Below, piece by piece: positions 5,375 through 53,000 of a stretch of DNA of 64,000 nt. The notes below the pieces were generated by a model. That model searched no databases, was not told where the DNA came from, and saw nothing but the letters and a program-made list of their open reading frames with translations. Positions within the stretch are counted from its first letter, which is position 1. Each line of letters begins with the position of its first letter. The stretch lies in contig JAFYWN010000007.1 of assembly GCA_017558005.1 (NCBI GenBank), positions 9,374 through 73,373 of the forward strand, given 5' to 3'. Source of the stretch: Kiritimatiellia bacterium. GTDB taxonomy: Bacteria > Verrucomicrobiota > Kiritimatiellia > RFP12 > DVOR01. The position numbers and the translations under genes were made by a program.

Positions 5375-5874
5375 TCCTCCTCTCTACGCACACTAAAAGT
5401 GTAGCAAAATGGAGACAAGTAGTCAACTCTACCGACCCAGGTAAGCGAAAATTTCGCGGTAGGTAGGCGAAATTTTCGCTTGAAAATCGGCGACTTTGGT
5501 CACCCAATTTCGCTGACTTTGCTCAGGAATTTCGCTGATATTGCTCGCCAATTTCGCTGATATTGACCCGAAATTGTTTTAGCTTTCCCCAAAAAAGCTG
5601 CTACTTGTTGATAACTTTTCTAGCACCTCTACCCCAAAATTTCGCAAGGAAGCGACTGTAGCGGAGTTAATCTTGCCCTATTTTTGATTTATCTCTTTAT
5701 TTTTCAATGAGTTATGACCTTTTAACGAGATTGAGCAAAAAGGCCAAAAATCCGACAATCCGCCGAAGATTTTTCAAAAAACTGCGTCGAAAAAAGTGAA
5801 TTGTTGATAACTTGTTGATAACTCAAAAAAGTTTTCAACAGCCGAAAAATCGATAAAAAAGTACAAAAAGTGAC
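5375..5874. repeat. Copy A of a ~500-bp non-coding repeat element, with an inverted partner at 39046-39537.
   Basis: Reverse-complement alignment to 39046-39537 gives roughly 80-90% identity by eye. Three 22-bp direct iterons (AATTTCGCTGA at 5506, 5528 and 5550) are present. TGTTGATAA occurs at 5606-5614, 5802-5810 and 5813-5821. There are near-palindromes GCGAAAATTTCGC and an AT-rich tract (5680-5720). Confidence 0.8.
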
Positions 5875-35519: not shown

Positions 35520-37529
35520 AGTCTGCTGCTCCTCTTCTGCCGAAAGACGCTTCACTTCAGGCTTGATTCCCGTTTGAATCAAACGCTCCACGTCGCGACC
35601 GTCGGCGGTTTCCACTTCTAAAAGATACTCAACTAAAAGTTCAAGTTTGTCACGATTCGCGCCAATGATTTCCTCACCACGGCGATATGCTGCTTCCACG
35701 AGCTGCGTCACTTCTTCATCAATTGCGCGCGCAGTGGCTTCGGAGTGATCCTGTTTGCGACCAATTTCTCGACCGAGATAGATCTGCTCTTCGTTATCCC
35801 CGAAGGCTTGGAAGCCAAATCGTTCGCTCATGCCATAGGCGCAGACCATCTGACGAGCCAGGCGGGTCGCCATCTTAATGTCTTGCGATGCACCAGTCGA
35901 GCGTTCGCCCGTAAAATACTTTTCGGCGATACGCCCGGCCGTCAAGACCACGAGCATATCCTTCATTTCATTCTCAGTGCGATTCAAAACGTCTCGCTCA
36001 GGCAGGGTCATCGTTGCACCCAGTGCGCGACCACGCGGGATGATTGTCACTTTGTGCAAGGGTTCCGTGTGCTCCAAAAGCACCTGCGCCAAGGCATGAC
36101 CACCTTCATGCCACGCCGTAATGCGGCGATCCTTATCGGCCATCGTGTGCGAACGACGTTCACGGCCCCACAGGACCTTGTCGCGCGCCTCTTCTAAGTC
36201 GGCATGAGTCACCTTTGTGCGACGAGCACGTGCCGCCAATAGTGCCGCTTCATTCAGCAAGTTGGCGAGGTCTGCACCAGAAAAACCTGGCGTACCGCGC
36301 GCAACGCGTTCCAAATCCACGTCTTCGCCCAACTTCACCTTATCGGCGTGCACCTTCAAAATCGCCACACGCCCCTCGACCGTGGGCAAGTCAACGACAA
36401 TCTGGCGGTCGAAACGGCCCGGGCGCGTCAATGCGGGGTCAAGCACGTCCACACGGTTGGTCGCTGCCATGACAATCACGCCACTATTGCCCTCAAAGCC
36501 ATCCATCTCCACGAGCATCGCATTCAACGTCTGTTCGCGTTCGTCATGCCCACCGCCGATGCCGGTAAAGCGCGTACGGCCAATCGCATCAATTTCGTCA
36601 ATGAAGAGGATACACGGCGCATTCTTCTTGGCCTGATCAAACATGTCGCGCACGCGGCTCGCGCCGACGCCCACAAACATTTCCACAAAGTCAGAACCCG
36701 AAATGGAGAAGAAAGGCACCTCTGCTTCACCTGCGATTGCCTTCGCGAGCAACGTCTTACCCGTGCCAGGAGGCCCCATCAAGAGAACACCTTTCGGCAC
36801 CTTACCACCCACCGCTTCAAAGCGCGCAGGCTCCTTCAAGAAATCAACAATTTCCTGCACCTCTTCCTTCGCCTCATCCACGCCAGCGACGTCCTTGAAG
36901 CGAATCTTCGCATCTTCCTTGTTCATCATCTTGGCGCGTGATTTACCAAAGGCAAAGGGGCCATCATTGCCACCGCCCATTCTGCGCATGAAGAGCACGT
37001 AAAAGAGCACAAAGAAGAGAATGATTGGCAGAAGCGAAACCATAATCGGTCCCCACCAACTGCGATTATTCTCTTGAATCGTGCGCACACCAGCCTGCGC
37101 CAAACGCGTCTCGAGCCCTTCAGTGTCAAGCAGATTCAGCTTAAAGGATTCACCCTGTGCCTTCGGGTCAACTTGCGCGCCGTCCGCAGTAGGCTTGGGC
37201 AACCACTGCCCTTGCAAAAAGGTCTCATCTTCTCCTTCTCGGATTAACTTCACCTCTGCAAGTGCCGCATTTCCCTTCACGCCCCCTGCTTCATCTTTGA
37301 CGACACCCGCCTCAACGCGTTGCCAGAAATCCAACTGCGAAAGCGGGGCCTCCGCTTTACTCAGGTTTAATCCCTCGCCACCGCCATTGAACAAGGCAAT
37401 CAAAGAGAAGATAAAGACCGCCAAAAGAACCCACACCATCACAGGTGCGCGCCAATGGGGTTTCTTATCCTTGTTATCGGGGGTATTCTCTTTTTTTCCG
37501 GGATTCGGCTTCTTTTCGTCTTTCGACAT
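35520..37529 (-). CDS. ftsH: ATP-dependent zinc metalloprotease FtsH, fused read-through into cmk.
   Basis: It has two N-terminal TM segments, AAA+ motifs (GPPGTGKT, the DEIDA Walker B, the second region of homology) and the HEGGH zinc motif. Start at MSKDEKK has a GAGGAG RBS. Confidence 0.9.
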
Positions 37530-37530
37530 C

Positions 37531-38466
37531 TTAGCTCCTCTGAACTTCGCGTCCCTTTTCCTGCGAGACGAGAATTTCAAACATTTGATCATTTTGCTTC
37601 TTACAGGCACCCAAAATCAACCCCACGCCATAGGAAAGCAAACCCGCCATGGCGAGGAAGCCGGAGAAGTTCAACGTCGGCTGACGCGGCACTTCGCCGA
37701 TCTTAAAGTATTCAATCAACACCGGCACAAACAATGCCATTGCGCAGAGCAATAACACCGTACCGACGACTCCAAAGAAGAACTCCGGACGATAAAAACG
37801 GAAGAGATTGAAAATCGTCTTCAGTACGCGAATACCATCGCTCACAGTGTTCAACTTCGAGACACTGCCCTCAGGACGATCGCGATACTGCACCGGCACT
37901 TCAATCAAGCTCATACGCTTATCAATCGTGTGCAGCGTCATCTCGGTTTCAATCTCAAAGCCCTGCGCCAAAACTGGGCAACTCTTCACGAAGAGACGGC
38001 TAAATGCACGATAACCCGTCATCACGTCATTCACACGCTGGCCCCACAAAAGGCGAATCAACGTGCAGACCAACGTATTCCCGAAATTATGTCCAGGGCG
38101 CTTATTCTCCTGCATGTACGTTGACGAGAGACGGTCACCATTGACCATATCCGCCTCGCCATCAAGGACAGGCTTAATCAACTTATGCACCTCATCTGCC
38201 GGATAAGTGTCATCAGAGTCCACCATCACATAGACATCTGCATCCACCTCCTGGAACATACGACGCACCACATGGCCCTTACCCTGTTGCGGCACGCGAC
38301 GAACGAATGCACCTGCAGCCTGAGCCAAGTCCGCAGACCCGTCAGAACTGTTATTGTCATAAACCCAAATATCCGCATCCGGCAACTCCGCGCGAAAATC
38401 CCGCACCACCTTCTCAATCGTCAAGGCTTCATTGTAACAAGGCAACAATACGGCGACCTTTGGCAT
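37531..38466 (-). CDS. GT2-family glycosyltransferase (dolichyl-phosphate mannosyltransferase-like).
   Basis: The N-terminal blocks VAVLLPCYNE and VYDNNSSDGS, the DSDD motif and C-terminal TM helices are present. An AGGAGG RBS precedes MPKVAV. Confidence 0.8.
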   Translation of the reverse strand: MPKVAVLLPCYNEALTIEKVVRDFRAELPDADIWVYDNNSSDGSADLAQAAGAFVRRVPQQGKGHVVRRMFQEVDADVYVMVDSDDTYPADEVHKLIKPVLDGEADMVNGDRLSSTYMQENKRPGHNFGNTLVCTLIRLLWGQRVNDVMTGYRAFSRLFVKSCPVLAQGFEIETEMTLHTIDKRMSLIEVPVQYRDRPEGSVSKLNTVSDGIRVLKTIFNLFRFYRPEFFFGVVGTVLLLCAMALFVPVLIEYFKIGEVPRQPTLNFSGFLAMAGLLSYGVGLILGACKKQNDQMFEILVSQEKGREVQRS

Positions 38467-38638
38467 AGTCTTCCTCCTTATAAAATTCCGCCCAAAATTA
38501 TACCACATTTCCCCCAACTCAAATATTTATTTTAATTAATGTATGTAAAAGATTCAGCCAAACTCGCCTCAAAATCCCCTGCGAGTGCTGGGCACAGGTG
38601 CCCGACAGTGGCCAATCGACAGTTGGCGCCTCTGGCGC

Positions 38639-38707
38639 TGGTTGACGGCGCTTCGCACCGTGGTTAAGCGGCAGAGCCGCTGGTTGACGAGCTCGCTCGT
38701 GGTTAAT
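38639..38707 (+). repeat. Four direct TGGTTRA repeats spaced about 20 bp apart, each preceded by a short GC hairpin.
   Basis: TGGTTGAC occurs at 38639, TGGTTAAG at 38661, TGGTTGAC at 38681 and TGGTTAAT at 38700. The array lies 170-240 bp upstream of the GT2/ftsH operon start. Confidence 0.4.
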
Positions 38708-39045
38708 GCCTAACGGCATGGATGGTGGCTTTGCCACAGGACTGCCAGTGTGGGGGTCTCCACGAGTCGCACAGTCATGCACGCTGCGTCGCACGGGCAC
38801 ATATCCGTGCTCCGCCAGCGTGCGCTTGTCTCTTCTTACTCCTCTCTTCTCACTTCTTACTACAAGGGCGCAGCCGCTTAACTGGGGAATATGCGCTCGA
38901 GCACGAAGTGCTGAGAAACAGGCAACTCAAGTGAGCTTAGCGAACGAAACTTAGAACTTGTGGCGTAGCCACCCCGTGGACTCTAAAATTCGTATAAATT
39001 CGTAAAATTCGTGGTTAAAATCCCGTGCGCGAAAAGTTCACTTTT

Positions 39046-39537
39046 TCCATTTTTTCATCGATTTTTCGCTTGTTGAAAACTTTTTTTAGTTATCAACAAG
39101 TTATCAACAATTCACATTTCACGACGCAGTTTTTTGAAATTTTATGGCAGATCAACGGATTTTCGGCGTTTTTGCTCAACCTTGTTAAAAATGCATAACT
39201 CATTGAGTAGTATGGAGATAAAGCAAAAATAGAGCAAAATTAACTCCGCTACAGTCGCTTCCTTGCGAAATTTTGGACCCAGAGTGATAGAAAAGTTATC
39301 AACAAGTAGCAGCTTTTTGGGAGAAAGCTAAAGCAATTCCGGGTCAATATCAGCGAAATTGGTGAGCAGTATCAGCGAAATTGATGAGCAATATCAGCGA
39401 TTTCGGGTGACCAAAATCAGCGATTTTCAGGCGGAATTTTCGCTTACTTATCGCGAAATTTTCGCTTACCTGGTTCGGTAGAGTTGACTACTTGGCTCCG
39501 GTTTGCTACACTTTTAATGTGTGTAGAGAGAAGAGAT
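39046..39537. repeat. Copy B of the ~500-bp repeat element, inverted relative to copy A.
   Basis: It is the reverse complement of 5375-5874. Iterons TCAGCGAAATT occur at 39350, 39372, 39394 and 39417. TTATCAACA occurs at 39088, 39099 and 39296. Imperfect 32-50-bp direct repeats lie 216 bp outside each end (38795-38826 and 39754-39786). Confidence 0.8.
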
Positions 39538-39874
39538 TGGCTTCGCCATGTTTCGGGGTTTTGGGTTCTGGGTTCGGGGTTCGCGCCTGCGGCGCAGGAC
39601 GACGTGTGTTTAGGTTTTCCACGGTGGAGCACAATCTTGACGTTCGCTACCGCTCTCTGCCTCTCCTTGCGGAGATGGCCGACGGATTCGGCACTCCTCG
39701 CTACGGACAGGCGTCCTACTGCGGGCCCTCACCGTTGTCACGCTGCGAGAAATGGGCACATATCCATTTCTTCGCCAGCGTGCGCTCACCAAGATCTAAG
39801 GCGGCGTCCCTTTGCCCCTTCGTATTCGCCGCCCAACCAGGAACGCTCAACTGCAAGGGTATTGAATGGATAAA

Positions 39875-39919
39875 GAAAAACCCGCATAGCAGAACTCCAC
39901 GACAGAACTGCTATGCGGG
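39875..39919 (-). terminator. Rho-independent terminator on the minus strand at the left edge of the AT-rich island.
   Basis: A 12-bp perfect stem (CCCGCATAGCAG/CTGCTATGCGGG) with a 15-nt loop is followed on the minus strand by TTTTTCTTTAT. Confidence 0.55.
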
Positions 39920-40227
39920 ACCCAAACCAAAGGATTCCTTTGAAAAAAGGCAACCAATGATGGCGGGAAGCATATCAAAAGAATGGTAAAAGTGAAGCCA
40001 GAATTTTAAAAATTATTGCCTTTGAGTAATTACGGCAATGAGTTGTGATTTTTCCATAAAAAACCGATGCACCTATTAATTAATGTAAGAAACCCTCTTT
40101 CGGTTATGGGATAATTTTGATAGAATACTTTACTGTAAGGCTTGCAGAAAATGGCTTGCATTTTAGAGGCTATTTTGCCTGCAAAATGAGTGAATTTTGA
40201 GAGGGAGCATGCGAAAACGCATGTAGG

Positions 40228-41214
40228 TTGATGACTGAGATTAAAGAGTTTCATTTATTTGCAGGTATTGGTGGCGGGATTTATGGTGGTGAATTATTAG
40301 GCCACAAATGCTGTGCAGGTGTTGAAATCATGCCATATGCACAAAAAGTACTCAAGCAACGTCAAGAGGATGGTTGGTTGCCTAAATTCCCGATTTATGG
40401 TGACTTGTGTGTATTGGATGGAACGCCGTTTAAAGGTAAATTTGACATCCTTTGTGGCGGTTTCCCGTGTCAGGCGTTTAGTACTGCAGCACATGGGAAA
40501 AATATCGCGGCAAAGAATCTTTGGGGTGAAATGCTCCGTTTTGTAAAAGAGTCCGATGCTCCAATTGTATTTGGTGAAAATGTTGTTTTACGTGCAATTG
40601 AACAAGCAAAAGTTGACTTAGAAGCGATTGGTTACAAGGTTGAGCGTATTCGTTTGAGTTGTTCTGATATTGGTGCTGACCATCAACGTAACCGTTTTTG
40701 GGTACTGGCAGTAAAAGATTATGCTGTTTTTGAAAAAATTGCAGCCCATTTGAAACAATTGCCGAAGTTGACTGGTGATTGTTGGACGAAGAGTCCTTCT
40801 GAGACGGGTGCCCCTGTTGAAGTGAAGGTGGGTGACCGCCGAGATCAATTACTTGGTGTCGGTAATGCACAGTCTCCGTTTGTTGCAGCTACAGCATTTC
40901 GTATCTTGGTGAATCGCCATTTGAATCATATAGATAGGCGGTCTGAACTCGTCTCGGCTAAAGAATTGGATGCAGTGTTTGAGAAGCGTGAGACGTGGAT
41001 TCAGAAGACGTTTAATAACATTGGACTTGTACATACTCCGACAACAATGGCTAATTATGCATGTCCTTCAATGATGAAACATCAAGGGTGTCGTAATTTT
41101 ACTGTTGTTTTTGGGCGTCCACAACCTGAAAATGCCGAATACTTAATGGGCTTTCCTTTAGGCGCGAGTTCGCCAAATCCATTGCCTATAACAAACTTCA
41201 AGCGTTGGAGATGA
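40228..41214 (+). CDS. DNA (cytosine-5)-methyltransferase.
   Basis: The m5C MTase motifs are present: I (LFAGIGG), IV (GFPCQAFS), VI (ENV) and VIII (QRNRFW). The protein is 328 aa. Confidence 0.85.
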   Translation: MMTEIKEFHLFAGIGGGIYGGELLGHKCCAGVEIMPYAQKVLKQRQEDGWLPKFPIYGDLCVLDGTPFKGKFDILCGGFPCQAFSTAAHGKNIAAKNLWGEMLRFVKESDAPIVFGENVVLRAIEQAKVDLEAIGYKVERIRLSCSDIGADHQRNRFWVLAVKDYAVFEKIAAHLKQLPKLTGDCWTKSPSETGAPVEVKVGDRRDQLLGVGNAQSPFVAATAFRILVNRHLNHIDRRSELVSAKELDAVFEKRETWIQKTFNNIGLVHTPTTMANYACPSMMKHQGCRNFTVVFGRPQPENAEYLMGFPLGASSPNPLPITNFKRWR

Positions 41215-41561
41215 TTATGAGTGCAGGTCGGATTTTAGAGTCATTGGGTAAAAGGCGTATGAAGCCTTGGACTTATCCAAATTCATATGCAATCATTAAA
41301 CCCGCGAGTTTAATGGCTGAGCAATCAACAAATAGAGATTCGGCTTCTTGGAAAAAAGCTGAGTATATCGTAATTGATGAAGTTCAGTATGGCCAGGGGA
41401 AACACCTAATTCCTGCATGGTGTTATTTCACTGCGGCTGATCCAGATGGTGCGGCAGGCTTTCAAAAGTTGTTGATTAACATTGGCGGTGGCCAATATGC
41501 TATGTATGACAATATGGGGTGTGGTCCCAAAATCGGTACTTTACGTGAATTGGTAAAGTAA
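41205..41561 (+). CDS. Small protein paralogous to the N-terminal domain of the downstream McrB-like protein.
   Basis: WKKAEYIVIDEVQ and AADPDGAAGFQKLLINIGGGQYAMYDN align to WRTAEYIVVDEFNQ and DADPDKHHKIQKMLIRTGNNQYDLYNH of the next ORF. Its start overlaps the MTase stop. Confidence 0.6.
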   Translation: MEMIMSAGRILESLGKRRMKPWTYPNSYAIIKPASLMAEQSTNRDSASWKKAEYIVIDEVQYGQGKHLIPAWCYFTAADPDGAAGFQKLLINIGGGQYAMYDNMGCGPKIGTLRELVK

Positions 41562-41601
41562 TAGAAGTCGTTTGCTTACTTTTAAGGGAAGGAATAACAC
41601 G

Positions 41602-43962
41602 ATGGGGCGCGGTGGAAAGGCAAAAATTAGTGCAGCCGTTTGTGAAATGTTTGAACGGCTTGGAATTAAACGATTAGAGGCTTGGACACATTCAAACTCT
41701 TTTTCTGGGGCAACAATTTCTAATTTTACGTCACCGGATAACCAAAATCGTGCTAATCGCGGTCAATCAAATTGGAGAACCGCAGAGTATATTGTAGTTG
41801 ATGAGTTTAACCAAGAGAGCGAAGAGATTGATCAGAGCGAAGAGATTGATCTTTCTATATGGAAAGAGATTACGGATGCTGACCCTGACAAACATCATAA
41901 AATTCAAAAAATGTTAATTCGTACAGGTAATAATCAGTATGATTTGTATAATCATGATGCGAATAAAATTGCGTCAGGAAGTTTAGAAGAAATTGAGAAC
42001 TTTATACGAATAAACAATACACAATTACAATCAAAACAATTAGTGGTTCAAGACCGCTTATTGGTTGCTTTACAGTTGTTTACAACGAAACGTGGTTCGT
42101 ATCAATTTAACCCTGTGTTACCTAACGAAGAGGTTACTGCAGAAAATTATTCTTACGAACATCTTGATAATTGGAAGGCCTTTTGCACGGAAGTGCAGGA
42201 GTCTCCATCGGATATTTCGGTTTGTTTCGCATCCAAGGTGGTCAAAGACCTTGGGATGCTCCCATCACTTCTAACACGTTTTTTAGTTCGTTTGGCGCCT
42301 TCAGTCTACGCTGCATGTTCAGAGCATACGGCAGAGGCATTGTATTTTCTTGAGTTGACGAAAACGAAGGTGTTACCTGAGGATTTGACAGCTGATGCGT
42401 ATGAGTCTTCTAAGGCAGTGCAGACGCAGATTCGTGATAAGATGCGTAAGATGAAGATTCTTTCTCAAGAGGGAAAAGAGGCGAATTATCTCACACTAGC
42501 AGAGTTTTTGTGGTTTGTTAATGACAACAAGGATTTGATCGAGGGTAAAGTTATGGAAAAGCAAATTAAGTCGGTTAATAAAACTAAGGTTAAAGAAGAT
42601 TCTCGCAAAGAGAAGCGTTTGAAGTGTAAGACTGCGGACGATGTTTTGATTTTCCGTTTAATGGCAACATTGCGCACGAAGCCTTTTGCCATTCTTGCGG
42701 GGCACTCGGGTACGGGTAAGAGCCGTTTGGTGCGTAAGTTGGCATACATGACGTGTAATGTGGAAGAACTTCAGAATACAGAGAAGAATTCCCCAGAGAA
42801 CTTTTGCATGGTGCAGGTGAAGCCGAATTGGCATGACTCTATGGATTTATTGGGGTATCGCAGTGCATTTGAAGATAAAAGTTATGTGACGACGGATGTG
42901 GTGAAGTTTATTTGTAAAGCGTATGCCTATCCTGAAACACCCTTTTTCCTTTGCTTAGATGAGATGAATCTTGCACCTGTTGAGCAATACTTTGCTGAAT
43001 TCTTAAGTGCGATGGAGTCGTTGCGAGAACTTAAAAGTTCTGACGAGGAGACATCTTCTGACGAGGAGACATCTTCTGACGAGAAGACATCTTCTGACGA
43101 GAAGACATCTTCTGACGAGGAGACATCTTCTGACGAGAAGATGTCTTACACCTCGGATACGCTTTTTACGTTGACTGACGATGAATTAAAGTCTCAAAGT
43201 AAGTTGTTTGATTTAGGGTGTGAAACCGGTGTGGGGCAAACGTATTTGACGAAACGTGGCGGTGTGACGATTCCAAAGAATCTCTTTGTCGTTGGCACTG
43301 TGAATATGGATGAAACCACATGCCAATTCTCTCGTAAGGTGCTTGACCGTGCGATGACGATTGAAATGACGGATGTAAACTTTGCCAATTTCGGCAAAGT
43401 GGCCGATCCAAGTTTTACGGACCTGCTTGCAGAAGAGATTGTTCAACTTTTGCTCAATGGAGACATTAAGGTTGAAAGCCTTGATACCGAGGATGTTGCT
43501 ACTGACTCAAAACTGTGTAAGCTTCAGCAACGTTTAGCGAAGACCTCTTTTGCGATTGCATATCGTTTTGCGAAGGAATACACGTTGTTTAAGAGAGCTA
43601 TTGAGGAATTTAAAAAACATATTTCAGGATCCCCTCAAAAATCTGAGGATGAATCTTCAGAAGTTGCTGAGACACCTGAAGACTCCAAGCCTTCAGAGGC
43701 CTCAAATTCTGGAATGCGTGAGACTGTGGACAACTTAGATGCCTTAGATCAAATGGTCTTAATGAAAGTGTTGCCACGTATTATGGGGAGAACTGAAGAC
43801 GTTAAGGCAATATTCACAGGGGTGCGCGATTTTAATCCTGAGGGTTCAAAAGAGCCTATGTCGGATTCACTTTTAGGCATTTTTGGGAAAACGTCTGAGT
43901 CAGGCAAGAAGATGATTGAGATTATGGAGCGAGGTGGCTCACATTTGACTTTTTGGCCGTAA
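41602..43962 (+). CDS. McrB-like AAA+ GTPase with a variable N-terminal domain and an acidic tandem-repeat insertion.
   Basis: The Walker A ILAGHSGTGKSRL and Walker B FFLCLDEMNL are present. McrB-like blocks NWHDSMDLLGY and VVGTVNMDETT are present. A GGAAGGA RBS precedes MGRGG. Confidence 0.7.
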   Translation: MGRGGKAKISAAVCEMFERLGIKRLEAWTHSNSFSGATISNFTSPDNQNRANRGQSNWRTAEYIVVDEFNQESEEIDQSEEIDLSIWKEITDADPDKHHKIQKMLIRTGNNQYDLYNHDANKIASGSLEEIENFIRINNTQLQSKQLVVQDRLLVALQLFTTKRGSYQFNPVLPNEEVTAENYSYEHLDNWKAFCTEVQESPSDISVCFASKVVKDLGMLPSLLTRFLVRLAPSVYAACSEHTAEALYFLELTKTKVLPEDLTADAYESSKAVQTQIRDKMRKMKILSQEGKEANYLTLAEFLWFVNDNKDLIEGKVMEKQIKSVNKTKVKEDSRKEKRLKCKTADDVLIFRLMATLRTKPFAILAGHSGTGKSRLVRKLAYMTCNVEELQNTEKNSPENFCMVQVKPNWHDSMDLLGYRSAFEDKSYVTTDVVKFICKAYAYPETPFFLCLDEMNLAPVEQYFAEFLSAMESLRELKSSDEETSSDEETSSDEKTSSDEKTSSDEETSSDEKMSYTSDTLFTLTDDELKSQSKLFDLGCETGVGQTYLTKRGGVTIPKNLFVVGTVNMDETTCQFSRKVLDRAMTIEMTDVNFANFGKVADPSFTDLLAEEIVQLLLNGDIKVESLDTEDVATDSKLCKLQQRLAKTSFAIAYRFAKEYTLFKRAIEEFKKHISGSPQKSEDESSEVAETPEDSKPSEASNSGMRETVDNLDALDQMVLMKVLPRIMGRTEDVKAIFTGVRDFNPEGSKEPMSDSLLGIFGKTSESGKKMIEIMERGGSHLTFWP
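43036..43146 (+). repeat. Six 18-bp tandem repeats encoding (SSDEET/SSDEKT)n inside the McrB-like gene.
   Basis: The direct nucleotide repeat TCTTCTGACGAGGAGACA occurs 6 times with G/A variation. Confidence 0.8.
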
Positions 43963-46224
43963 GTGTGTGAAAGACTGATGAAACAAAAAAAAGTTTTTGC
44001 GTTTGAGATTCCAGGGCTGTTGAGCTTCTGCGTCACAGGGAATAACACTGGACGCGTGGAGCGTTATTGTAAGCGTATTAAGTGCACATCTCAAGACGAT
44101 AAAGCGAAGGTTTTGTTTCAGGCAAATCGCAAAGGGACGTGGCATTTTTTTGAACCGAAAAGTGAGACTGTTGAGGAGAATGTTACTGCAAGCGCTTTAC
44201 CTGTCTTTTATGAAACGACTTATCAAGTAAAATGCAAGTTTGAGCGCAAGGTGAAAGATGTGCGTGTGTCGCACAAATTGGTGAGCGTGGCGGACGAGTT
44301 CTACTATGACGAAGAGGATTGTTGTCTTTCGGGGCCGCTCAATTTCATTAATACACCCGGTAAATTTGCCTTTGAGATAAATATTGAGATGGCAACAGGG
44401 GAAACGACTACATTGAAATTAGAGTGGTGGGTCGTCTCCGAGAAGATGAATGTTATTGAGGATTATAGTGCCATTGTAGAAAAGGTGTCTTCAGTGAAGC
44501 CCGAATTGGTGTATGCCTTTTTGGCTAAGACCATGAATGAGAGTGGGCTTTCTTCTGAAAAGGGACAGTCGGATGCAGTGTGGTATGATATTTTTCAAAC
44601 GCTTGTCTCAACGTATCGTTCGGCTTGTGAACATGTGGTTCATAATCCGCATTTAAGGTATGTGGAGCATGAGCAGTATTTGCGTGTGAACCAAATACGG
44701 CGATGGACGCCAGCGTTAATGCAACGTTACCAACAGACGGATAAGTCTGTACGTGAAATGCGTCATTTTCACGCAACAGAAGTCGTCCCAGAGGTGGATA
44801 CTGTTGAAAATCGGTTTGTGCTGTTTACGTTAACAAAGATTGCAGAACGATTGCGAGATTTCGCAAAACGTTGCCGAGAAGAGGGTGGCGGTAAGATTAG
44901 TGAAGACTTCATCAAGCAGATGGAGGTTGATGCGACATCATTTGAAGAGATGACTTATCATCCATTCTTCCGTGAGGTGGGGCATTATAATGGTGTTGTG
45001 CAAGAGAGTTTGGCACTTCTTCGAAAGCGTGGATATGCCGAGATTTACGACACATGGTTGAAATTAAAACATTCGTTAGACCTCACTGGAAGCGGCATTG
45101 ATGTGGGAAATAATCCCATTTGGAAGTTGTATGAGTTCTGGTGCTTCTTGATGATTCGAGATTGGTTAATGGAGCGTTATCCAGATCCCAAGGGCTCATT
45201 AGGAGATGTCGTAGAAACATCGGATATTTTTGAAGACCCATATGATGAAGCCACAGGAGAAACGAAACAACCTGCTGGAAGTAAAAAGTGTGAGTATGTA
45301 TTTAAAGATGAAATGGGCAATCGTGAGATTGTGCTCACCTATCAGCTTTCGTATGGTCATGGAAAGAATGGCTCTGAGGATGTGTCAGGGCATCTTTCTT
45401 ATGTGGTAGAGCAGATTCCTGATATTGTGATGACAATTAAGGACTTAGGCATTGCACAGAATGAGCATACCTATCTCTTTGATGCGAAGTATCGCATTAT
45501 GCAGTATCCATCGGCAACAGACCATCAAAAAGACGCATCTCCTCATGCTGCAATAAATGACATGCATCGTTATCGTGATGCGATTCTTTATCGTAGTCAA
45601 AAAAGCGGGAAGCTTTCGCGTGAAGTGATTGGTGCGTATGTACTTTTTCCTGGACGGCTGGGAGAGTCTTACGATTATACAGAAATCATTAGAAATGAGA
45701 ATATCGGTGCGATCCCTCTCTTACCTGGTGAAGAGGGGACGAAAGCACTATTAGCATTCCTTGAAGAGATTATTACCCGTGGCACACCAAAAGAGCACCT
45801 TGAAAAGGTAATCCCCACGCGTGGTACTTCGGCGGTCTTGGGTGACGATATGCCGTTAGGATTCCCCAAAGGGGAGAATATTATTCGCATTTCCTCAACA
45901 GAGAAACGGCCATACTACGAGTATTTTAATGAATTAAGAGGCTCAACAATACCAACATTCTTCTATTTGACGCAATTGGCATGTGAATATGATGGTAATA
46001 CTTCTGAGCAAAATGCCTCCCAAAAACAGATGGTCATCATTTGGGCAGAGACGGATAAACGTCTTCCCATTCGAGTATTGTTGGGAAAATATCATGGATG
46101 TCAGAAATACGATAAAGAATCTATTTACAGATTAGATAATAATTTTTCGGGTGGAAATTCATTAGAAGTCGCTTTGGAAAAGAGTGATAAGGTTTATGTT
46201 TGGGAGATTATAAGTGTGGAGTGA
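43963..46224 (+). CDS. McrC-like nuclease subunit (PD-(D/E)xK).
   Basis: It lies immediately downstream of and abutting the McrB-like gene. Its C-terminal region carries a PD...D-x-K arrangement (EQIPDIVMT ... LFDAKYR). The protein is 753 aa. Confidence 0.6.
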   Translation: MCERLMKQKKVFAFEIPGLLSFCVTGNNTGRVERYCKRIKCTSQDDKAKVLFQANRKGTWHFFEPKSETVEENVTASALPVFYETTYQVKCKFERKVKDVRVSHKLVSVADEFYYDEEDCCLSGPLNFINTPGKFAFEINIEMATGETTTLKLEWWVVSEKMNVIEDYSAIVEKVSSVKPELVYAFLAKTMNESGLSSEKGQSDAVWYDIFQTLVSTYRSACEHVVHNPHLRYVEHEQYLRVNQIRRWTPALMQRYQQTDKSVREMRHFHATEVVPEVDTVENRFVLFTLTKIAERLRDFAKRCREEGGGKISEDFIKQMEVDATSFEEMTYHPFFREVGHYNGVVQESLALLRKRGYAEIYDTWLKLKHSLDLTGSGIDVGNNPIWKLYEFWCFLMIRDWLMERYPDPKGSLGDVVETSDIFEDPYDEATGETKQPAGSKKCEYVFKDEMGNREIVLTYQLSYGHGKNGSEDVSGHLSYVVEQIPDIVMTIKDLGIAQNEHTYLFDAKYRIMQYPSATDHQKDASPHAAINDMHRYRDAILYRSQKSGKLSREVIGAYVLFPGRLGESYDYTEIIRNENIGAIPLLPGEEGTKALLAFLEEIITRGTPKEHLEKVIPTRGTSAVLGDDMPLGFPKGENIIRISSTEKRPYYEYFNELRGSTIPTFFYLTQLACEYDGNTSEQNASQKQMVIIWAETDKRLPIRVLLGKYHGCQKYDKESIYRLDNNFSGGNSLEVALEKSDKVYVWEIISVE

Positions 46225-46374
46225 TTTTAAAATGGTTTGACATGAGGTAAGGTATTTGCTTTATTTAAGTTAATGGTTAATCATTGAAGAAGTAGCATTT
46301 AGGGTAACGGTTGAGCTGCAAGCAAAGTAATAAAACTTTTTGCAACGATTGAGTTTACATTTTAGGAGATAAAC

Positions 46375-47985
46375 ATGGCGAGTCATCTTCATTTTCAAAC
46401 AGCTTTCTCGGTAAAGCCCACGGGGGTGCATTCTGCGCGAGAATTGTTTTCGAAGCTGCAAACAGTTATTTTTAATTGGGTTTGTCAAAAGCAGAATAAA
46501 CATGGTTATAAGCAAATAGATATTGATGCATTCAAGAAGAAGCTTGAAGTGCAGGGGTTTGTCAATGGTGCGAAATTGAAAACCGTTTCTTGCTTTATGG
46601 ATGATGAGATATCTTGGGCAATGCGTTTTGAGGAGCTTGACACCTCGGATGCATCGCGTCCATGGACAACAGAGGTGGGGATGTATTTAAGTGATGAAAA
46701 TGGAGCTGTTAACTTTTCCTATACAACATACTATAGGACGTCGGTGGCGGAGGAGTTTGAAAAGCCTATTAAGCCAACATACAAGTTTCCACATTTGATT
46801 AAATTAATTTTGGAAATACCAGGAACACAAGTCTATTTTAGCGGAGGATTACCCTTAACGTCATCCTACACTAAAATTAGGACTTCACAAGAGGCATTAA
46901 ACTTTATTTCCGCAGCGAATGATGGGAATCGAGAGGATTCGCTTGTTTTAGTAATGGGAGCTTCGCGTGAAAATGAAATGCGGGCAAGAAATCTAGCACA
47001 GACACTTTATGGAAAGGTGTGCGTCTTTCTTGCAGATAGAACGCCAGAAGTGCTTGAGACATTTTGTAACAAAAAACATACTTTTAACCTTGGTCAAATA
47101 AGGATTTATTATCCACGTAAAAGTCGAGGGTCAAAAGACTACTCAAAAGATAAATTAAACGAGCTTGACAATGCAATAGCACAATTATTAAAAATCCCTG
47201 CGATAAAGACTCCGACTTCGGTTCGAACCCTTTCAGATGTGATGCATCGTCGCCTATTCATAAAGCTTACTGGGCTTAATGAGTTTTTTAATAAATTAAA
47301 AAAGGCTGCGCAGAGTGAACTGAAGCGCGAAGAGGTTGATATGGATTTTATCAATCTGGTGCAAGAGACAAATGAAGAACTGCAAAAGGAAAATGAGAAG
47401 TTGCGAAATGAAATAGAGACTATTGAAGCGGTCGCAGAATCAGAAATGAAAGAATTGAGAGACGTGTTTGCGAAGAAAGAAGCTGAGTATTTGGCTCAGA
47501 TTAGAAGTCAAAAAAAGACACCTTCGCTACCACGTGAATTTCCTGCCAAACTTACAGATGTCTTAGCGTGGGCTAAACTTTTGCCGAATCTAATGATTGC
47601 ACAGAGTGCTCATGCTTCAGCTAAGAAGTATGAGCAATTCAAAGAGTTTAGTGTAGCATGGGATATGCTACTTGCACTGAATAGCGTTTTGTTTAGGTTA
47701 AAATTTACTGAAAATAAAAGTAATTTCTGGACAGAATTTCAGGATCGTACAGGTTATGAATTTGCGAAAGGTGAAGGACCTAAGACAAATAGTGATACTG
47801 CTTTGGTCAAGCTTCGTCAATTCCAGCATAATGGGAAATCATATGAAGGGTGGATGCACTTAAAGTATGGAAATCAACCCAATAAGCTTCTTCGTATTCA
47901 TTTTGATTTTGATGAAGAATTGCGAAAAATTGTAGTGCTTCATGTGGGAGATCATATCCCTAATGCCACAACCGGTAAACTTTAA
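46375..47985 (+). CDS. Hypothetical coiled-coil protein, paralog A (536 aa).
   Basis: A long ORF in the AT-rich island is homologous over its full length to the next ORF. It has a central coiled coil and a conserved C-terminal module (HLKYG...LRIHFDFDEELRKIVVLHVGDH). Confidence 0.65.
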   Translation: MASHLHFQTAFSVKPTGVHSARELFSKLQTVIFNWVCQKQNKHGYKQIDIDAFKKKLEVQGFVNGAKLKTVSCFMDDEISWAMRFEELDTSDASRPWTTEVGMYLSDENGAVNFSYTTYYRTSVAEEFEKPIKPTYKFPHLIKLILEIPGTQVYFSGGLPLTSSYTKIRTSQEALNFISAANDGNREDSLVLVMGASRENEMRARNLAQTLYGKVCVFLADRTPEVLETFCNKKHTFNLGQIRIYYPRKSRGSKDYSKDKLNELDNAIAQLLKIPAIKTPTSVRTLSDVMHRRLFIKLTGLNEFFNKLKKAAQSELKREEVDMDFINLVQETNEELQKENEKLRNEIETIEAVAESEMKELRDVFAKKEAEYLAQIRSQKKTPSLPREFPAKLTDVLAWAKLLPNLMIAQSAHASAKKYEQFKEFSVAWDMLLALNSVLFRLKFTENKSNFWTEFQDRTGYEFAKGEGPKTNSDTALVKLRQFQHNGKSYEGWMHLKYGNQPNKLLRIHFDFDEELRKIVVLHVGDHIPNATTGKL

Positions 47986-48004
47986 TGCCTAAGGGAATAG
48001 TGTT

Positions 48005-49690
48005 ATGCCAAAATTAAATGACAAAAATATTAATTATCACGCTTCATTCGTGATTGATCATCAAGATTCAAAGCAGACGTTTCATGCCATTCTTGAAATT
48101 TTAAAGAAATGGCTGAAGGAGAAAGAGCGTAGTTTTAAGAATCCTAAGATGAAAGATGTGTATGGGGTATTCTCTACATTTGATCAATCTCAATCTGCAA
48201 CATTTGGTAGCAGAACTGAAACGCGACATTTGAAGATTCAATCCGCAGAAAATAAGGAAAAGAAATTATGGGGATTTGAATATTCGCATCCTCAATTTAA
48301 CAATCGCAAGTCAATGCTGATTCGGTATTGGTATGTAGAAGTCTATATCACATCCTTTAAAAATACAAATAATGTCGCGGTGTATGTCTGTGTTTCATAT
48401 AGTTGGAATCGAACAAAGATGCTTGAAGAAGATGATGCACGTCTTCCAACGCCCACAGTTCCAGGCTTTATGAAAAACTTGGTAAAGACATTTAATCTTC
48501 ATATAGAGGGATGTCCGTTCAGTTTCTCGCCTAAACCTTATCTTTTAAACACAAAAGAAGATGTGGAGCCATTTATTGATTTGCTTAGGGATGATGATCG
48601 AAAAACATTTATTTTACTTTCAACATATTCGCCTACTTACCAAGCTGCAGAAGACTTTTTAAAACGATTGGCGGAAAAGGTATTAGGGAAAGCATTATTT
48701 TTTCACGTAGATCCTACAAAGGAGGCGTTTAAGTATCTAAAACGTGCAAATGTTTTTGAGAAGCTTGAATCGAATACCATCTACATTATTTCAGAGATGA
48801 GGAAAGGCCGTTTAGGAATTCAATGGATATTATCACCTCCTGGTCCTACTGAGGCTTATTTTGATAATACATCTAACCGATTGCAAGAGTTCTTTTATCG
48901 AAATCAGATTGTACTTGCTGATGGCGCAATAACCTCTTTTTCTGCAATTTTTTCTGCGGATTTGTTTGAGCGTTTTCAAAAGGAGCGTGATGCTAAACTG
49001 TCTGCGCAAGGCGCTAAAGAAGAGGCAATTGGCAATGCTCATGCTGCGGAGGAATTGTTTGAAGATTTATACGTGCGTAACGAGAATACAGTGAATGAAA
49101 ACAAGACCCTTAAAGATGAGAATAAGGATTTAAAGAATAGACTCGCACATGAGCAACGAGAACACAAGCGAAAAGAGAATGAACTAAAAACTCAAGTTGA
49201 TAACGCAGAGTCTCGTCTTGTAACAGCTTTCTACAACTCTGCGCAATGTAAAAAGTTGCGAGATAAAGTGGAGTGTTTAAAAGAGATTTTATCCCCAAGG
49301 CTTGTATTTACAGATAAATCACTCTCAAGTTTAGAGCGGTGTACAAGAGAAAATGAAGCAGAATTGATAGAGGGATTAATAGCCTTGTATCATATTTTGT
49401 GGCCAATTCATATTAAGGGCGCAATTGGACAACGTATAGAAGATGTCTTTAAGAGTACAAAATTTAAGTATGCGCCTCAAGAAAATCAGGAAACAATGGA
49501 TGTTCTAGACTATCGAAAAGATCGTACGGTCACGTATAATGGTAAAGATTATGTTTGCGAGAGTCATCTTAAGTTTGACAAAAATGGACGTATCTATTTT
49601 AAGTTTTCAGAGGAGTTAAAGAAGATAGTGTTATGTGTTCTTGGAGTTCACCTAGATACTGCAGGCACAAAACGTAAAAGTATTAATTGA
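48005..49690 (+). CDS. Hypothetical coiled-coil protein, paralog B (561 aa).
   Basis: It is the tandem paralog of 46375-47985. The C-terminal module HLKFDKNGRIYFKFSEELKKIVLCVLGVH is shared. No known domain is recognised. Confidence 0.65.
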   Translation: MPKLNDKNINYHASFVIDHQDSKQTFHAILEILKKWLKEKERSFKNPKMKDVYGVFSTFDQSQSATFGSRTETRHLKIQSAENKEKKLWGFEYSHPQFNNRKSMLIRYWYVEVYITSFKNTNNVAVYVCVSYSWNRTKMLEEDDARLPTPTVPGFMKNLVKTFNLHIEGCPFSFSPKPYLLNTKEDVEPFIDLLRDDDRKTFILLSTYSPTYQAAEDFLKRLAEKVLGKALFFHVDPTKEAFKYLKRANVFEKLESNTIYIISEMRKGRLGIQWILSPPGPTEAYFDNTSNRLQEFFYRNQIVLADGAITSFSAIFSADLFERFQKERDAKLSAQGAKEEAIGNAHAAEELFEDLYVRNENTVNENKTLKDENKDLKNRLAHEQREHKRKENELKTQVDNAESRLVTAFYNSAQCKKLRDKVECLKEILSPRLVFTDKSLSSLERCTRENEAELIEGLIALYHILWPIHIKGAIGQRIEDVFKSTKFKYAPQENQETMDVLDYRKDRTVTYNGKDYVCESHLKFDKNGRIYFKFSEELKKIVLCVLGVHLDTAGTKRKSIN

Positions 49691-50015
49691 TGGGTTATCA
49701 CCATGATAAGGAGTCTGCCTTTTAGGCTTGTAAGAACTAGGTCACACGTTAAGATTGGACGGGGTTGTGATTTGAACATATTTGATTTGTAATGAGAGCT
49801 GTCCGTCCAATTAAAATTGATGCTCCTCATTTTGTGATGCGCGTAAAAGAAGACAACACAAGTACTTTTTCTGTAAATTTGAGTTGACTCATAGTTTTTC
49901 AATCAACAGTTCCTTTTCAAAGGCGATTTAACAATAAAATCTTATCTTTTTTGTTGCATTTTAGATTTTACTTTGTTATTATTATGCCGTTTCAAACATT
50001 CTCCTACACAGACAC

Positions 50016-50058
50016 ACAACCCCACCCCGCCACGAACATTGTTCGGGCGGGTTTTTCT
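50016..50058 (+). terminator. Rho-independent terminator at the right edge of the island.
   Basis: The stem CCCGCCACGAACA/TGTTCGGGCGGG is followed by TTTTTCTTTCGTTT. Confidence 0.45.
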
Positions 50059-50078
50059 TTCGTTTCTAAGGATGTGAA

Positions 50079-53000
50079 TTAGGACAAGAGGTCTTCGATT
50101 TCTGCCATGGTCAGTGTGGAGACGATGGAGGCGTCGGTGGCATTGACGGTGGCTTCGATGAGGGCCTGCTTTTTGCGTTGCATCTCAAGCACTTTTTCTT
50201 CAATGGTGTCTTGTGCAATGAGTTTGATGGCTTGTACGGTTCGCTTTTGTCCAATACGATGCGCTCGGTCGGTGGCTTGTTCTTCTGCGGCAGGGTTCCA
50301 CCATGGATCAAAGTGCACAACCATGTCGGCACCCGTCAAATTTAGGCCTGTGCCACCAGCTTTCAGGGAGATTAAGAAGACGGAGATGGTGGTGTCTTGA
50401 TTGAAGCGCGCACATTCGTCTAACCGATTTTTTGTTGAGCCGTCTAAGTAGCAGAAGCGAATTTCTTCTTCGGTTAGGCGCGCAGCAATCCGTTTGAGCA
50501 TTGAGGTGAATTGGGAGAAGATGAGCATTCGGTGGCCACCTGAACGCGCTTCTGCGAGTAATTCCATCAAGGTATTTAGTTTGGCCGAGGTTTCTTCGCC
50601 ATCGGCCACTTTGTAGTCTGGCATGAGGCAGGCATCGCAACAAATTTGACGCAATCGCATGAGGTCTGCCAAGACTTCAAAGCGTGACTTTTCAAATCCT
50701 TTTTCTTTCACAAGGTTACGCATGCGGGTGCGGACGTGTTCACGAATGCGGTCGTAGGCATTCCGCTGAGAAGGCGTTAACTCGCAATACATCACGGTGC
50801 GGATCTTATCGGGCAAATCTGGCGCCACTTCTTTTTTCACACGGCGAAGTAAGAAGGGATGGAGTTTTTTCCGCAGTTGGTCTTGTGCAAGCTCGGCGGC
50901 TCGTCCTCCTAATGCCACGGCATCTTCGTAACGCAGCTTAAAGGCGTCATATTTCCCGAGGTAATCTGGCATGAGGAAGTCCATGATGCTCCAGAGGTCT
51001 GAAACACCATTTTCAATCGGTGTACCAGAGAGGACCAGACGCGTATCGGAGCGCAACTGTTTGACGGCTTGCGCATTTTGCGTTCGCTGATTTTTAATTG
51101 CTTGCGCTTCGTCTAATACGACAGCGGAATAGGCACATTTTGTGTGGAATTCGGTGTCTCTACGAATTAAAGCATAACTTGTTATGACCAAATCGCTCTC
51201 GGGTACTTTTTTAAATTTATTGAAGCGATCGGGCCCAGATAAGACTAAGCAACGCAACCAGGGCACAAATTTCAGTGCTTCACGTCGCCAGTTTTCTACC
51301 AAAGAGGTTGGGCAGATAATCAATGCGGGGGCGCGTCTAGCTTCTTCACGATAGCGTGGTAATTGCAGCCAGGTCAACGTTTGAAGGGTTTTACCTAAGC
51401 CCATCTCGTCGGCAAGGATGCCACAAAATCCACAGGTTTCCAAAAAGCGCAACCAATAGACACCTTCTTTTTGATAGGGACGCAAGGTCTCTTCAAGGCG
51501 ACCTAAGGGAACGGGTTCTGGCTTTTCTTCACGATTTTGGGCGGCAGCCCGTTTACGCCAGTCTGGGTGTGTTTCAAAATCAATCCCATCCAAGCTCGCA
51601 AGAACCGCCTCAACAAATGGCACGTGTACTGCTTCTACGCAAGAACTGCCGGGTGTTTTCCCTGCCGTAGCATGGCACGAAGCGAGGGTCTTTCGTAGGG
51701 TTCGCAATGCATTGATATCAATTAATGCAAGTGCGCCCTCTTTTTCAATATACGCATTTCCATGCGACAAGGCGCGTTCTATCTCTGCGGCGCTAACGGA
51801 GAGCTTGCCTTGGGGGGACTCGTAAACAGTGGTTAATTCAAAAGAGGTGCCTGTCGCAGAGGGTTTCACAGAGACCACGGGTACAATCATTTCTGCTCGT
51901 TCAAAGCAGTCATTTATGGCCCCAGATAAAATCACGCGCCACCCCACACGGCGAACGGCGGGGATGTGTTCGCCCAAGAGATTGCGAATGGCACGTGTAC
52001 CGCTTACGGTCCCTAAATGTTTGCCATCGGAGCCATAAAATCCCATTGCTTGGGTGTATTCCAAGGCGGCGCGCTCTGCTTCACGATTGCGAACGTAACA
52101 ATGATAGAAGTCGTCTGGATCGGGTTGGGAGACCTCTTCTTTTGAACCAACGGTTACATAGTTATTTCCATAACAGGCTTTTAGGCGCGCTGTTACGTAA
52201 TTCTCATCCCCATCAAGTTCTAATACAAATCGTGGTTCGCCTGGGGTCGTTGTGAAAAGTTCAAAGGGAACACTTTCTTCATCCAAAGGTAATGCCGCCG
52301 TCATCTGCGGCAGTTCATTACGATAAAAGTGTACTAATGCCCCACGAGAGACTTGTACAGGTTCGCAATAGACTGCTTGATAGGGTAAAGGCAAGGTGCT
52401 CGCCACTGGGTGCGCATCGGCTCCCTCAATTAAAAAGCCTTGCGTGCCATGCACCAACAAAACGCCTGCTTGTGGTGCACCAATTGAGACGATTAGCGAA
52501 TCGGTCTCCAAGTTTGGACGCAAGCGAATCGGCGTTTGTACAGGTTCTTTACACATTCGAATTTGTTTACGCTCCGTAGCGAACCCTACCCAACTCTTTG
52601 CAGCGCATCGAATGATTGAGAGGGTGTCTGCCTGCGAGAGGTCAATGGTATCTGTAAATGCTCCCTCAGTAATATCCTCAAAGATACCAATTAAATCCTC
52701 ATCTCCCTCGGAGAAGGCGTAACGCTCCTTCGGCAGCTCTTGCGGTTTCCATGCCTTCCCTGCCACATAGATGCGAATGCCAATGCGCACCGTGCCATTG
52801 TAAAAGGCCTCACGCAACGATTGTAACGAAGGAAGGAAGACGCGTAACAATGCAGGACGGCCATGAGGGTCTCGCTGGATCAAATCTTTCGCTTGTGACA
52901 AACGCGCCATCCGTGAACGTTCTTCGTCGCATTGTTGGCGACGGGATTCACTTCCATAAAGATGCATCACTGCGAGCATCCCCGCCACGATGTGTTCACA

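Follow-up and report, generated by a model that had tools for sequence, protein, structure and literature searches.

The locus considered here raises two questions, namely what the genes in a compact, AT-rich block of about 10 kb do and how that block came to stand beside a conserved SNF2 helicase gene. The block, referred to below as the island, spans positions 39,921-49,908 of the window (the whole stretch of 64,000 nucleotides that was analysed) and lies between two outward-facing terminators. The host is a Candidatus Spyradenecus sp., a gut member of Kiritimatiellota, and the window is chromosomal, with ddl-ftsQ-ftsA-ftsZ, an FtsH-Cmk fusion and the SNF2 helicase gene all present. The island holds six genes and is a composite of two independent modules. 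Module A (40,076-46,224) has four genes, which encode a DNA methyltransferase (MTase), a 114-amino-acid (aa) paralogue of the McrB N-terminal domain, a McrB-type GTPase and a McrC-type subunit. Module B is a tandem pair of HEC-07 genes. The content is of known kinds (the MTase-associated branch of McrBC that carries an NxD signature, and HEC-07), with minor lineage-specific features in the form of the free N-domain gene, an in-frame variable-number tandem repeat (VNTR) in the AAA+ domain and the tandem, divergent HEC-07 genes. The overall reading, an acquired and composite island that joins McrBC-type and HEC-07 system types, is considered probable.

The composition of the island sets it apart from the rest of the window. 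In 1-kb windows, GC content at 40-50 kb is 0.36-0.44 compared with approximately 0.50-0.58 on both sides. The 26 core genes of the window, which served as the reference set for GC, GC at third codon positions (GC3) and codon usage, have a GC of 0.530 +/- 0.020 and a GC3 of 0.549 +/- 0.042, whereas the six island genes have a GC of 0.363-0.426 (z -5.1 to -8.3 against the core mean) and a GC3 of 0.30-0.41, and in codon usage most of them lie farther from the core pool than every core gene does. The left GC step is located at 39,920/39,921, where a value of 0.576 (39,534-39,920) gives way to 0.365 in the AT-rich, plus-strand leader of module A (39,921-40,230). The left flank is a 1.7-kb non-coding stretch (38,467-40,230), and a minus-strand intrinsic terminator within it (39,871-39,919; a 12-bp stem followed by a T-run, with a scan match at 39,893-39,881) coincides with the left edge of the low-GC island. 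The right flank is an AT-rich spacer of 388 bp (GC 0.37) that holds a plus-strand intrinsic terminator (50,026-50,060), the tail of which is the exact complement of the left terminator's tail. The first part of this spacer (49,691-49,908) is specific to the island and ends at the right junction (49,908/49,909). An earlier, sequence-only reading of this stretch had described an AT-rich segment of about 10 kb, bounded on the left by a 1.7-kb non-coding region with a repeat (copy B) and a minus-strand terminator and on the right by an AT-rich spacer with a terminator. These bounds are confirmed, as is the deviant composition, and the placement of its open reading frames (ORFs) is borne out by gene calls on identical public contigs.

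The first gene of module A (40,231-41,214, plus strand) encodes a C5-cytosine DNA methyltransferase of 327 aa (PF00145, E 1.8e-24) that possesses motifs I (FAGIGG), IV (GFPCQ), VI (ENV) and VIII (QRNRF) and aligns to residues 10-172 of M.HhaI (E 9e-10). The McrB-type AAA+ GTPase (41,602-43,962, plus strand; 786 aa) has AAA_5 and NCBIfam McrB matches that are weak but specific, together with a PADLOC match to PDC-M26A (1.8e-36). In this protein a lineage-specific N-domain (residues 1-135) and a conserved pre-GTPase region precede the GTPase, which contains the conserved motifs Walker A (GHSGTGKS), Walker B (LDEMN) and sensor (GTVNMDE). Over these three motifs the protein can be aligned, marginally (E 4e-4), to the E. 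coli McrB structures 6hz4 and 6ut6, placing the sensor GTVNMDE opposite E. coli GLMNTADR; the signature is thus NxD followed by E and not NxxD. The McrC-type subunit (43,978-46,224, plus strand; 748 aa) matches DUF2357 (PF09823, 4e-36) and PDDEXK_7 (PF04411, 1e-28), and it consists of an N-terminal region of ~120 aa, DUF2357 (residues 119-360), a PD-(D/E)xK domain (383-559) and a C-terminal extension of ~190 aa. Its catalytic residues E386, P481, D482 and K504 are invariant, and D502 is nearly so, in 42 homologues. The C-terminal extension is variable in relatives (47% identical to that of L093, a contig of a related organism), and no matches were found for either the N-terminal ~120 aa or the C-terminal ~190 aa.

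The linkage of these genes is not peculiar to this locus. Among six homologue contexts drawn from a protein index, four have one or two C5-cytosine (m5C) MTase genes immediately upstream of McrB-McrC. Histidine-kinase and response-regulator genes lie between the MTase and McrB in one context (L097), McrB is absent altogether from L098/L099, and an HNH gene and Fic are among the accessory genes of the homologue loci. Scanning metagenome contigs with a profile yielded 80 further loci, which were annotated with hidden Markov models (HMMs) built for the analysis. McrB is followed by McrC in 75 of the 80, and NxD is present in 73 of those 75 McrB proteins (97%). The count of upstream MTases was limited to the 57 loci with at least 1.5 kb of upstream sequence. 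An m5C MTase gene lies directly upstream and on the same strand in 45 of these (79%), as a single gene in 34 and as two or more in 11, and the linkage holds down to 28% McrC identity. Thus, the LlaJI-type organisation (m5C MTase, McrB-like and McrC-like genes) proposed from the sequence is real and is conserved in the clade, and the association of the branch with an adjacent MTase and with NxD can now be quantified by these two percentages.

Module A belongs to the MTase-associated NxD branch of McrBC noted by Bell and coworkers (eLife 2024, PMC11090510), who took the NxD + E variant as the defining mark of a major uncharacterised branch of McrBC, part of which associates with DNA methyltransferases and two-component genes. 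The MTase association was termed "surprising for a Type IV system" and was left unexplained there; the methylase-linked NxD branch was flagged as abundant in this 2024 census and deferred to a later paper (PMC11090510). The locus described here is a clean, intact example of it. In common with the branch, it has NxD then E, a McrC made up of DUF2357 and PD-(D/E)xK domains with extra regions, and an adjacent DNA MTase. Two-component genes, which are frequent in the branch but not obligatory, were not found in the island and are present in the relatives L097 and L100. The locus differs from the branch in adding a gene for a free N-domain, specific to the lineage, and an in-frame VNTR within the AAA+ domain.

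Two characterised systems provide points of comparison. LlaJI (of Lactococcus lactis pNP40, with a Helicobacter pylori homologue) likewise has one or more same-strand m5C MTases, a McrB-like GTPase whose N-terminal recognition domain is variable, and a PD-(D/E)xK protein resembling McrC. It is the only model with experimental support for the restriction of unmethylated DNA by such machinery (PMC1459862; PMC12707154). However, the clade of module A appears distinct from LlaJI by every sequence criterion tested. LlaJI R1 has 585 aa with a B3 N-domain and R2 is ~49 kDa, whereas here the GTPase has an apparently unrelated N-domain and NxD, and the larger McrC is of the DUF2357/PDDEXK_7 type with extra terminal regions. 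The McrC-like protein has no RE_LlaJI (PF09563) or McrBC Pfam match at E <= 10, and neither sequence nor fold comparison linked the McrB N-domain to the solved B3 domain of LlaJI.R1. The label "LlaJI-like" given in the sequence-only reading therefore holds for the organisation and the probable logic but fails for the family, there being no RE_LlaJI match, no B3 match and NxD in place of NxxD. The label also covers 60% of the island and left the genes at 46,375-49,690 uninterpreted. What had been taken for a three-gene module has four genes, the 114-aa gene at 41,217-41,561 having been missed, and the 10 kb are not one module, as the last 3.3 kb are an unrelated HEC-07 pair that is absent from 89 related loci. 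The second system, McrBC of E. coli K-12, shares with module A an AAA+ GTPase and a partner in which a DUF2357 stalk is joined to a PD-(D/E)xK nuclease. Unlike module A, its McrB has NxxD and a DUF3578 N-domain that reads 5-methylcytosine, lacks a cognate MTase and cuts methylated DNA. A third locus, on L. lactis plasmid p275A (L102, 61,704-66,555), was considered as a LlaJI comparator and set aside, since it turned out to be an MTase-less, NxD McrBC-like pair between insertion sequence (IS) elements. It comprises a hypothetical gene, an NxD AAA ATPase (GTVNTDES) and a "nuclease domain-containing protein"; these genes sit between two ISS1 copies, and the plasmid table annotates no methyltransferase there.

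By analogy with LlaJI, module A would, on balance, work by a mechanism of the restriction-modification (R-M) type carried out with McrBC machinery. The m5C methyltransferase would mark the host's own DNA, and the McrB N-domain would bind unmethylated copies of the cognate site on incoming DNA. McrB hexamers loaded with GTP would recruit the DUF2357 and PD-(D/E)xK McrC, which would stimulate GTP hydrolysis and cut the DNA. The 114-aa protein, translated together with the methylase, would be a free version of the domain by which McrB binds DNA. The R-M reading is supported by the tight, conserved linkage of M and R genes, by the lack of a match to modified-base readers (no Pfam match to DUF3578/ADAM, YTH, EVE or SRA in the N-terminal 340 aa of McrB at E <= 10, and no DUF3578, YTH, EVE or SRA detectable in the McrC-like protein) and by the state of the L093 copy, in which R is disrupted and M is maintained. 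The McrB gene of L093 is split by an IS1595-family element (L093 6,842-7,756) with an 8-bp target duplication (window-equivalent 42,799-42,806). Beside it the small gene, McrC and the MTase are all intact, and the MTase is under purifying selection (dN/dS 0.07 between the window and L093 copies). This is the pattern of decay expected if R is costly and M is protective.

Several points weigh against the R-M reading. No NxD-type McrB has been experimentally characterised (Bell et al. 2024, PMC11090510), for which reason the mechanism is still inferred, and both GTP dependence and a DNA target would be extrapolated from NxxD enzymes. The majority of the McrBC systems that have been characterised cleave modified rather than unmodified DNA. 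LlaJI has two MTases for its asymmetric site and there is one here, the MTase is atypical in its C-terminal half, and 12 of the 57 evaluable relatives have no upstream m5C MTase. Those 12 relatives would equally suit the alternative that module A is an ordinary Type IV McrBC, dependent on modification, which cleaves modified DNA of foreign origin, as the characterised E. coli and Thermococcus enzymes do. The MTase would then not be a protective partner and could be an orphan, phage-derived, or an enzyme that modifies another sequence context, for example blocking other nucleases; its best profile match is in fact the phage methyltransferase family phrog_363 (2e-42), and Bell and coworkers found the association surprising in a Type IV system. 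However, an orphan or borrowed enzyme would have to be reconciled with an adjacent, same-strand MTase in most of the evaluable relatives, with the 2 nt that separate the MTase stop from the next start, and with the maintenance of the L093 MTase beside a disrupted McrB. The modified-base readers that a Type IV enzyme might be expected to use are not detectable in McrB or McrC, and LlaJI provides a precedent for the pairing (PMC1459862). A Type IV system is thus an unlikely explanation of module A, and the R-M type mechanism is preferred.

The second gene of module A begins 2 nt after the MTase stop (41,217-41,561, plus strand) and encodes the 114-aa, free-standing paralogue of the McrB N-terminal domain, being 33% identical to McrB residues 16-131 (E 6e-18). 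The ORF is a real gene under constraint, since the protein is 95% identical in L093, dN/dS is 0.06 (at a dS of 0.36) and the gene is also called on independent public contigs. Searches of Pfam, PADLOC, PHROGs and PDB sequences gave no match to the protein, and a fold search with a two-sequence AlphaFold model of moderate confidence gave no informative match. Among the related McrBC loci annotated, a free N-domain gene is found elsewhere only in L093/L094. The most likely role, a speculative one suggested by analogy with E. coli McrB-S, is that the protein tunes the system by site occupancy or as a regulator, for instance of expression; an alternative, also speculative, is that it lends specificity to the methylase. 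A stronger proposal, that the protein constitutes a third functional subunit of an NxD-type, methylase-coupled McrBC, is doubtful. As such a subunit it may be translationally coupled to a methylase with a minimal target-recognition region. It could possibly act as a specificity or site-occupancy factor that links methylase protection to nuclease attack, or possibly as a buffer against self-restriction. The latter would be the mirror image of E. coli McrB-S, in which the N-domain is absent and which titrates McrC (PMC12707154). If the third-subunit proposal is true, the lineage would be a tractable model of the way in which the NxD McrBC branch puts a Type IV motor to use in classical R-M discrimination.

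The McrB-like protein has an oddity of its own. An in-frame 18-bp tandem repeat (43,038-43,145, plus strand; 5.8 copies at 96% by Tandem Repeats Finder) encodes TSSDEE/K units within the AAA+ domain, between Walker B and the NxD sensor. There are six units here and in L082 and three in L001. The spacing from Walker B to the sensor is 113 aa here compared with 60-83 aa in relatives, in which the loop is 30-50 residues shorter. A second in-frame 18-bp duplication (41,816-41,851) occurs in the N-domain of the protein. A dN/dS of 0.43 in the N-terminal part of McrB was considered as a sign of diversifying selection on specificity and rejected; the IS disruption of the L093 copy and a patchy dS, indicative of mosaics formed by recombination, leave the value uninterpretable. 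Both the gene for the free N-domain and the in-frame repeat that varies among strains are small, testable oddities that leave current understanding standing.

Further minor features belong to the methyltransferase and its leader. A motif-X-like GNAQSP stands soon after motif VIII and a motif-IX-like AEYLMGFP near the C-terminus, and the phage MTases of phrog_363 end just past the GNA motif. The enzyme is either a short, phage-type MTase with an added C-terminal domain or one with a permuted motif order. Homology to the L093 module begins at 40,076 (blastn), within the leader, which also contains an upstream ORF of 27 aa (40,117-40,200, plus strand) that shares the reading frame of the MTase, with a single TGA between the two. 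The corresponding stretch of L093 is read through, giving an MTase of 365 aa with an N-terminal extension.

Module B encodes two HEC-07 family proteins. Protein a (46,375-47,985, plus strand; 536 aa) matches PADLOC HEC-07 (PDLC04161) with 3.2e-29 over residues 22-533, and protein b (48,005-49,690, plus strand; 561 aa) matches HEC-07 with 4.4e-19 and NsnC with 4.5e-13. The two are 23% identical (BLASTP 4e-9). Protein a has an N-domain, a thioredoxin-like domain without CxxC, a coiled-coil helix of ~90 residues and a C-terminal RNase domain of the RelE/BECR type with the triad H495, R507 and H527; the same H-R-H is present in protein b. An exhaustive search recovered 870 representatives of the HEC-07 family, most of 540-560 aa, and the triad is invariant across 50 aligned sequences, the two paralogues among them. 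HEC-07 (Hma-embedded candidate 07; Payne et al., bioRxiv 2024) is recognised here by the full-length profile match and by the thioredoxin-like domain without CxxC. Of nine single-locus candidates, seven reduced plaquing, and HEC-07 was one of these (bioRxiv 10.1101/2024.01.29.577857). An AdoMetDC-like N-terminal domain is a further feature of HEC-07; the fold matches listed here were filled by thioredoxins. The arrangement at this locus differs from that description in that two tandem paralogues stand by a McrBC module and not inside an Hma system. Both proteins also match the C-terminal part of the Menshen NsnC profiles in PADLOC, and the RelE/BECR-type domain with its conserved H-R-H triad resembles the PB-BECR1 RNase domain of NsnC, for which this arrangement has been described (PMC12065111). 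The pair is not Menshen, because the partners NsnA (ParB-DUF262) and NsnB (ABC ATPase) have no matches among the island proteins and only the C-terminal effector domain of NsnC is common to both.

Family members occur as single genes on Klebsiella and Pseudomonas plasmids (two contexts, reached through a more typical member), and module B is therefore read as an independent, RNase-based defence that has been duplicated and has diverged. No close relatives of the island's HEC-07 proteins were found on viral contigs or plasmids. Equipped with sensor domains, a coiled coil for dimerisation and an RNase domain of the RelE/BECR type, the proteins would probably be RNases triggered by infection, acting alone or as a heterodimer. 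A heterodimer of a and b through the coiled coil is possible, and the RNase may be activated on infection. The structural model is confident and shows the thioredoxin-like domain, and a helix followed by beta-sheet at residues 469-525. Two points tell against the RelE-like assignment. The RelE-like fold is called from HMM matches and conserved residues, and no RelE structure appeared among the fold matches listed, which thioredoxins dominated.

The proximity of the two modules suggests another arrangement, in which all six genes form one system with an NxD McrBC sensor and motor and coiled-coil RNase effectors, like the predicted RNA-targeting CoCoNuT systems. All six genes are on the same strand, the gaps around the HEC-07 genes are 150 nt and 19 nt, a single pair of outward-facing terminators encloses the whole, the NxD branch to which the McrB belongs also includes CoCoNuTs (PMC11090510), and the HEC-07 proteins combine long coiled coils with RNase domains. 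In spite of this, none of the 89 related McrB-McrC loci contains a HEC-07 gene, and L093, the closest relative of module A, lacks the pair. The two modules also differ in composition, module B having a GC of 0.36-0.39 compared with 0.42-0.43 in module A and a more deviant codon usage. On plasmids HEC-07 occurs by itself, and defence by a single HEC-07 gene has been reported; the CSD, HEPN and helicase typical of CoCoNuTs were not found. A single six-gene system is very improbable, and the composite of two independent modules is retained.

How the island reached its present site can be approached through L002, a contig of a metagenome-assembled genome from a conspecific strain, whose SNF2 is 98.5% identical to that of the window. 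The two sequences are colinear from 62,654 down to 49,909 (12.7 kb, 96.5% nucleotide identity) and then diverge fully, which fixes the right junction at 49,908/49,909. The 170 bp conserved beyond the junction (49,909-50,078) carry the plus-strand terminator in both the window strain and L002, where it is identical, and this terminator closes whichever cargo operon occupies the site. The next 7 kb of L002 past the junction are also of low GC (0.36-0.42) and lack the island genes. Instead, L002 13,633-21,128 encodes a DarT toxin and a DarT1-associated NADAR antitoxin (DarTG1-type) together with five unannotated low-GC genes. The presence of the DarT/NADAR cargo at the identical junction makes the SNF2-adjacent site look like a defence hotspot, in a little-studied gut phylum, that holds McrBC with HEC-07 in some conspecific strains and DarTG-type cargo in others. 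All contigs with the exact SNF2 protein of the window carry the island too. In L093, module A is located elsewhere in the chromosome, where it lies between thiC and fmt/priA and once more forms a low-GC patch; the MTase, the 114-aa gene, McrB and McrC are 85-93% identical at the nucleotide level (window 40,076-45,857), and the two downstream HEC-07 genes are absent. These observations support a strain-specific island that was horizontally acquired at a variable hotspot by the conserved SNF2 helicase gene. Horizontal acquisition had been proposed from the sequence, and it stands: GC is not uniform across the region, and the conspecific L002 has other low-GC cargo in place of these genes.

The left side of the island varies among strains. 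The glycosyltransferase (GT2) gene at 37,531-38,466 is widespread (45 index blocks), its upstream neighbours vary by strain, and most contigs break within repeats at 38.6-39.9 kb. In one sample, two contigs that jointly give the arrangement of the window overlap by exactly the assembler's k (39,755-39,895), indicating a branch point directly left of the island. A single ancestral left junction was not recovered, the GT2-side neighbours being variable and the contigs breaking in repeats. In other Spyradenecus species, at ~60% SNF2 identity, no flanking gene of the window is syntenic and no empty site could be defined; the empty-site comparison is informative only for L002, whose contig ends before the left flank.

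What stands against acquisition is that no att sites, integrase or transposase were found to explain the arrival of the island. The statement of the sequence-only reading that integrase and tRNA are lacking agrees with the searches, which found no tRNA in the window and no integrase domain among the window proteins. Rfam families were also not found in the window; the non-coding stretch at 38.4-40.3 kb has no Rfam match at E <= 1, and its promoter-proximal 411 nt fold no better than shuffles (z -1.1). Searches for att-like repeats flanking the island gave only short, chance-level direct repeats across the junctions. One candidate, a 22-nt direct repeat at 40,156 and 49,954 (82% identical), was judged to be due to chance or promoter-like and was rejected because one copy falls within the module that L093 also has, and the other within the conserved flank that is common to the window and L002. 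The simplest guess for the mode of transfer would be homologous recombination in conserved flanks or at dispersed repeats. That the region is instead native, its low GC reflecting local mutational or functional constraint and the strain differences reflecting deletions elsewhere, would suit the lack of integrase, tRNA, att repeats and transposase and the extent to which other species-level relatives are rearranged, but it is scarcely credible given a 10-point GC and 15-25-point GC3 deficit limited to six genes, other low-GC cargo at the identical junction of a conspecific genome, module A at another site in L093, and relatives of module A scattered over many gut and rumen metagenome lineages.

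Repeats are prominent in the left flank. Copy B (39,038-39,533) is an AT-rich element of ~500 bp (GC 0.38) that is 88% identical to an inverted copy A (5,377-5,873) located 33 kb away. The element contains 22-bp iterons (CAATATCAGCGAAATTGATGAG x2.5), three DnaA-box-like 9-mers (TTATCAACA) and a promoter (TTGACT-17-TACACT) facing outward; that of copy A points toward yccF-ddl-ftsQAZ. In the island-free strains L084 and L086, copy B occupies the colinear position upstream of the GT2 gene, and it is context of the left flank and not cargo of the island. A shorter dispersed repeat of ~90 nt has a diverged copy at 39,730-39,790 and a better one at 38,738-38,827. It occurs in either orientation and is also found in L084, L085, L088, L089 and L093, and L093 has two of them just upstream of its homologous MTase module. 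The copy at 39,730-39,790 is a site of assembly breaks and of rearrangements among strains; contigs L082 and L083 begin at 39,755 and 39,759, and the homology of L084 stops at 39,768. The ~90-nt repeat may be an element resembling miniature inverted-repeat transposable elements or repetitive extragenic palindromes (MITE/REP-like), or a recombination site for cargo exchange.

Two other features were noted to the left of the island. An array of five consecutive units of ~20 nt occupies 38,620-38,735, in GC-rich, non-coding DNA upstream of the glycosyltransferase gene; every unit is made up of TGGTTRAN and then a short hairpin rich in GC. Farther to the left, a single ORF of 909-936 aa on the minus strand (34,800-37,610) encodes FtsH (AAA and peptidase M41 domains) with a C-terminal cytidylate kinase domain, and this FtsH-cytidylate kinase fusion is kept in all strains examined.

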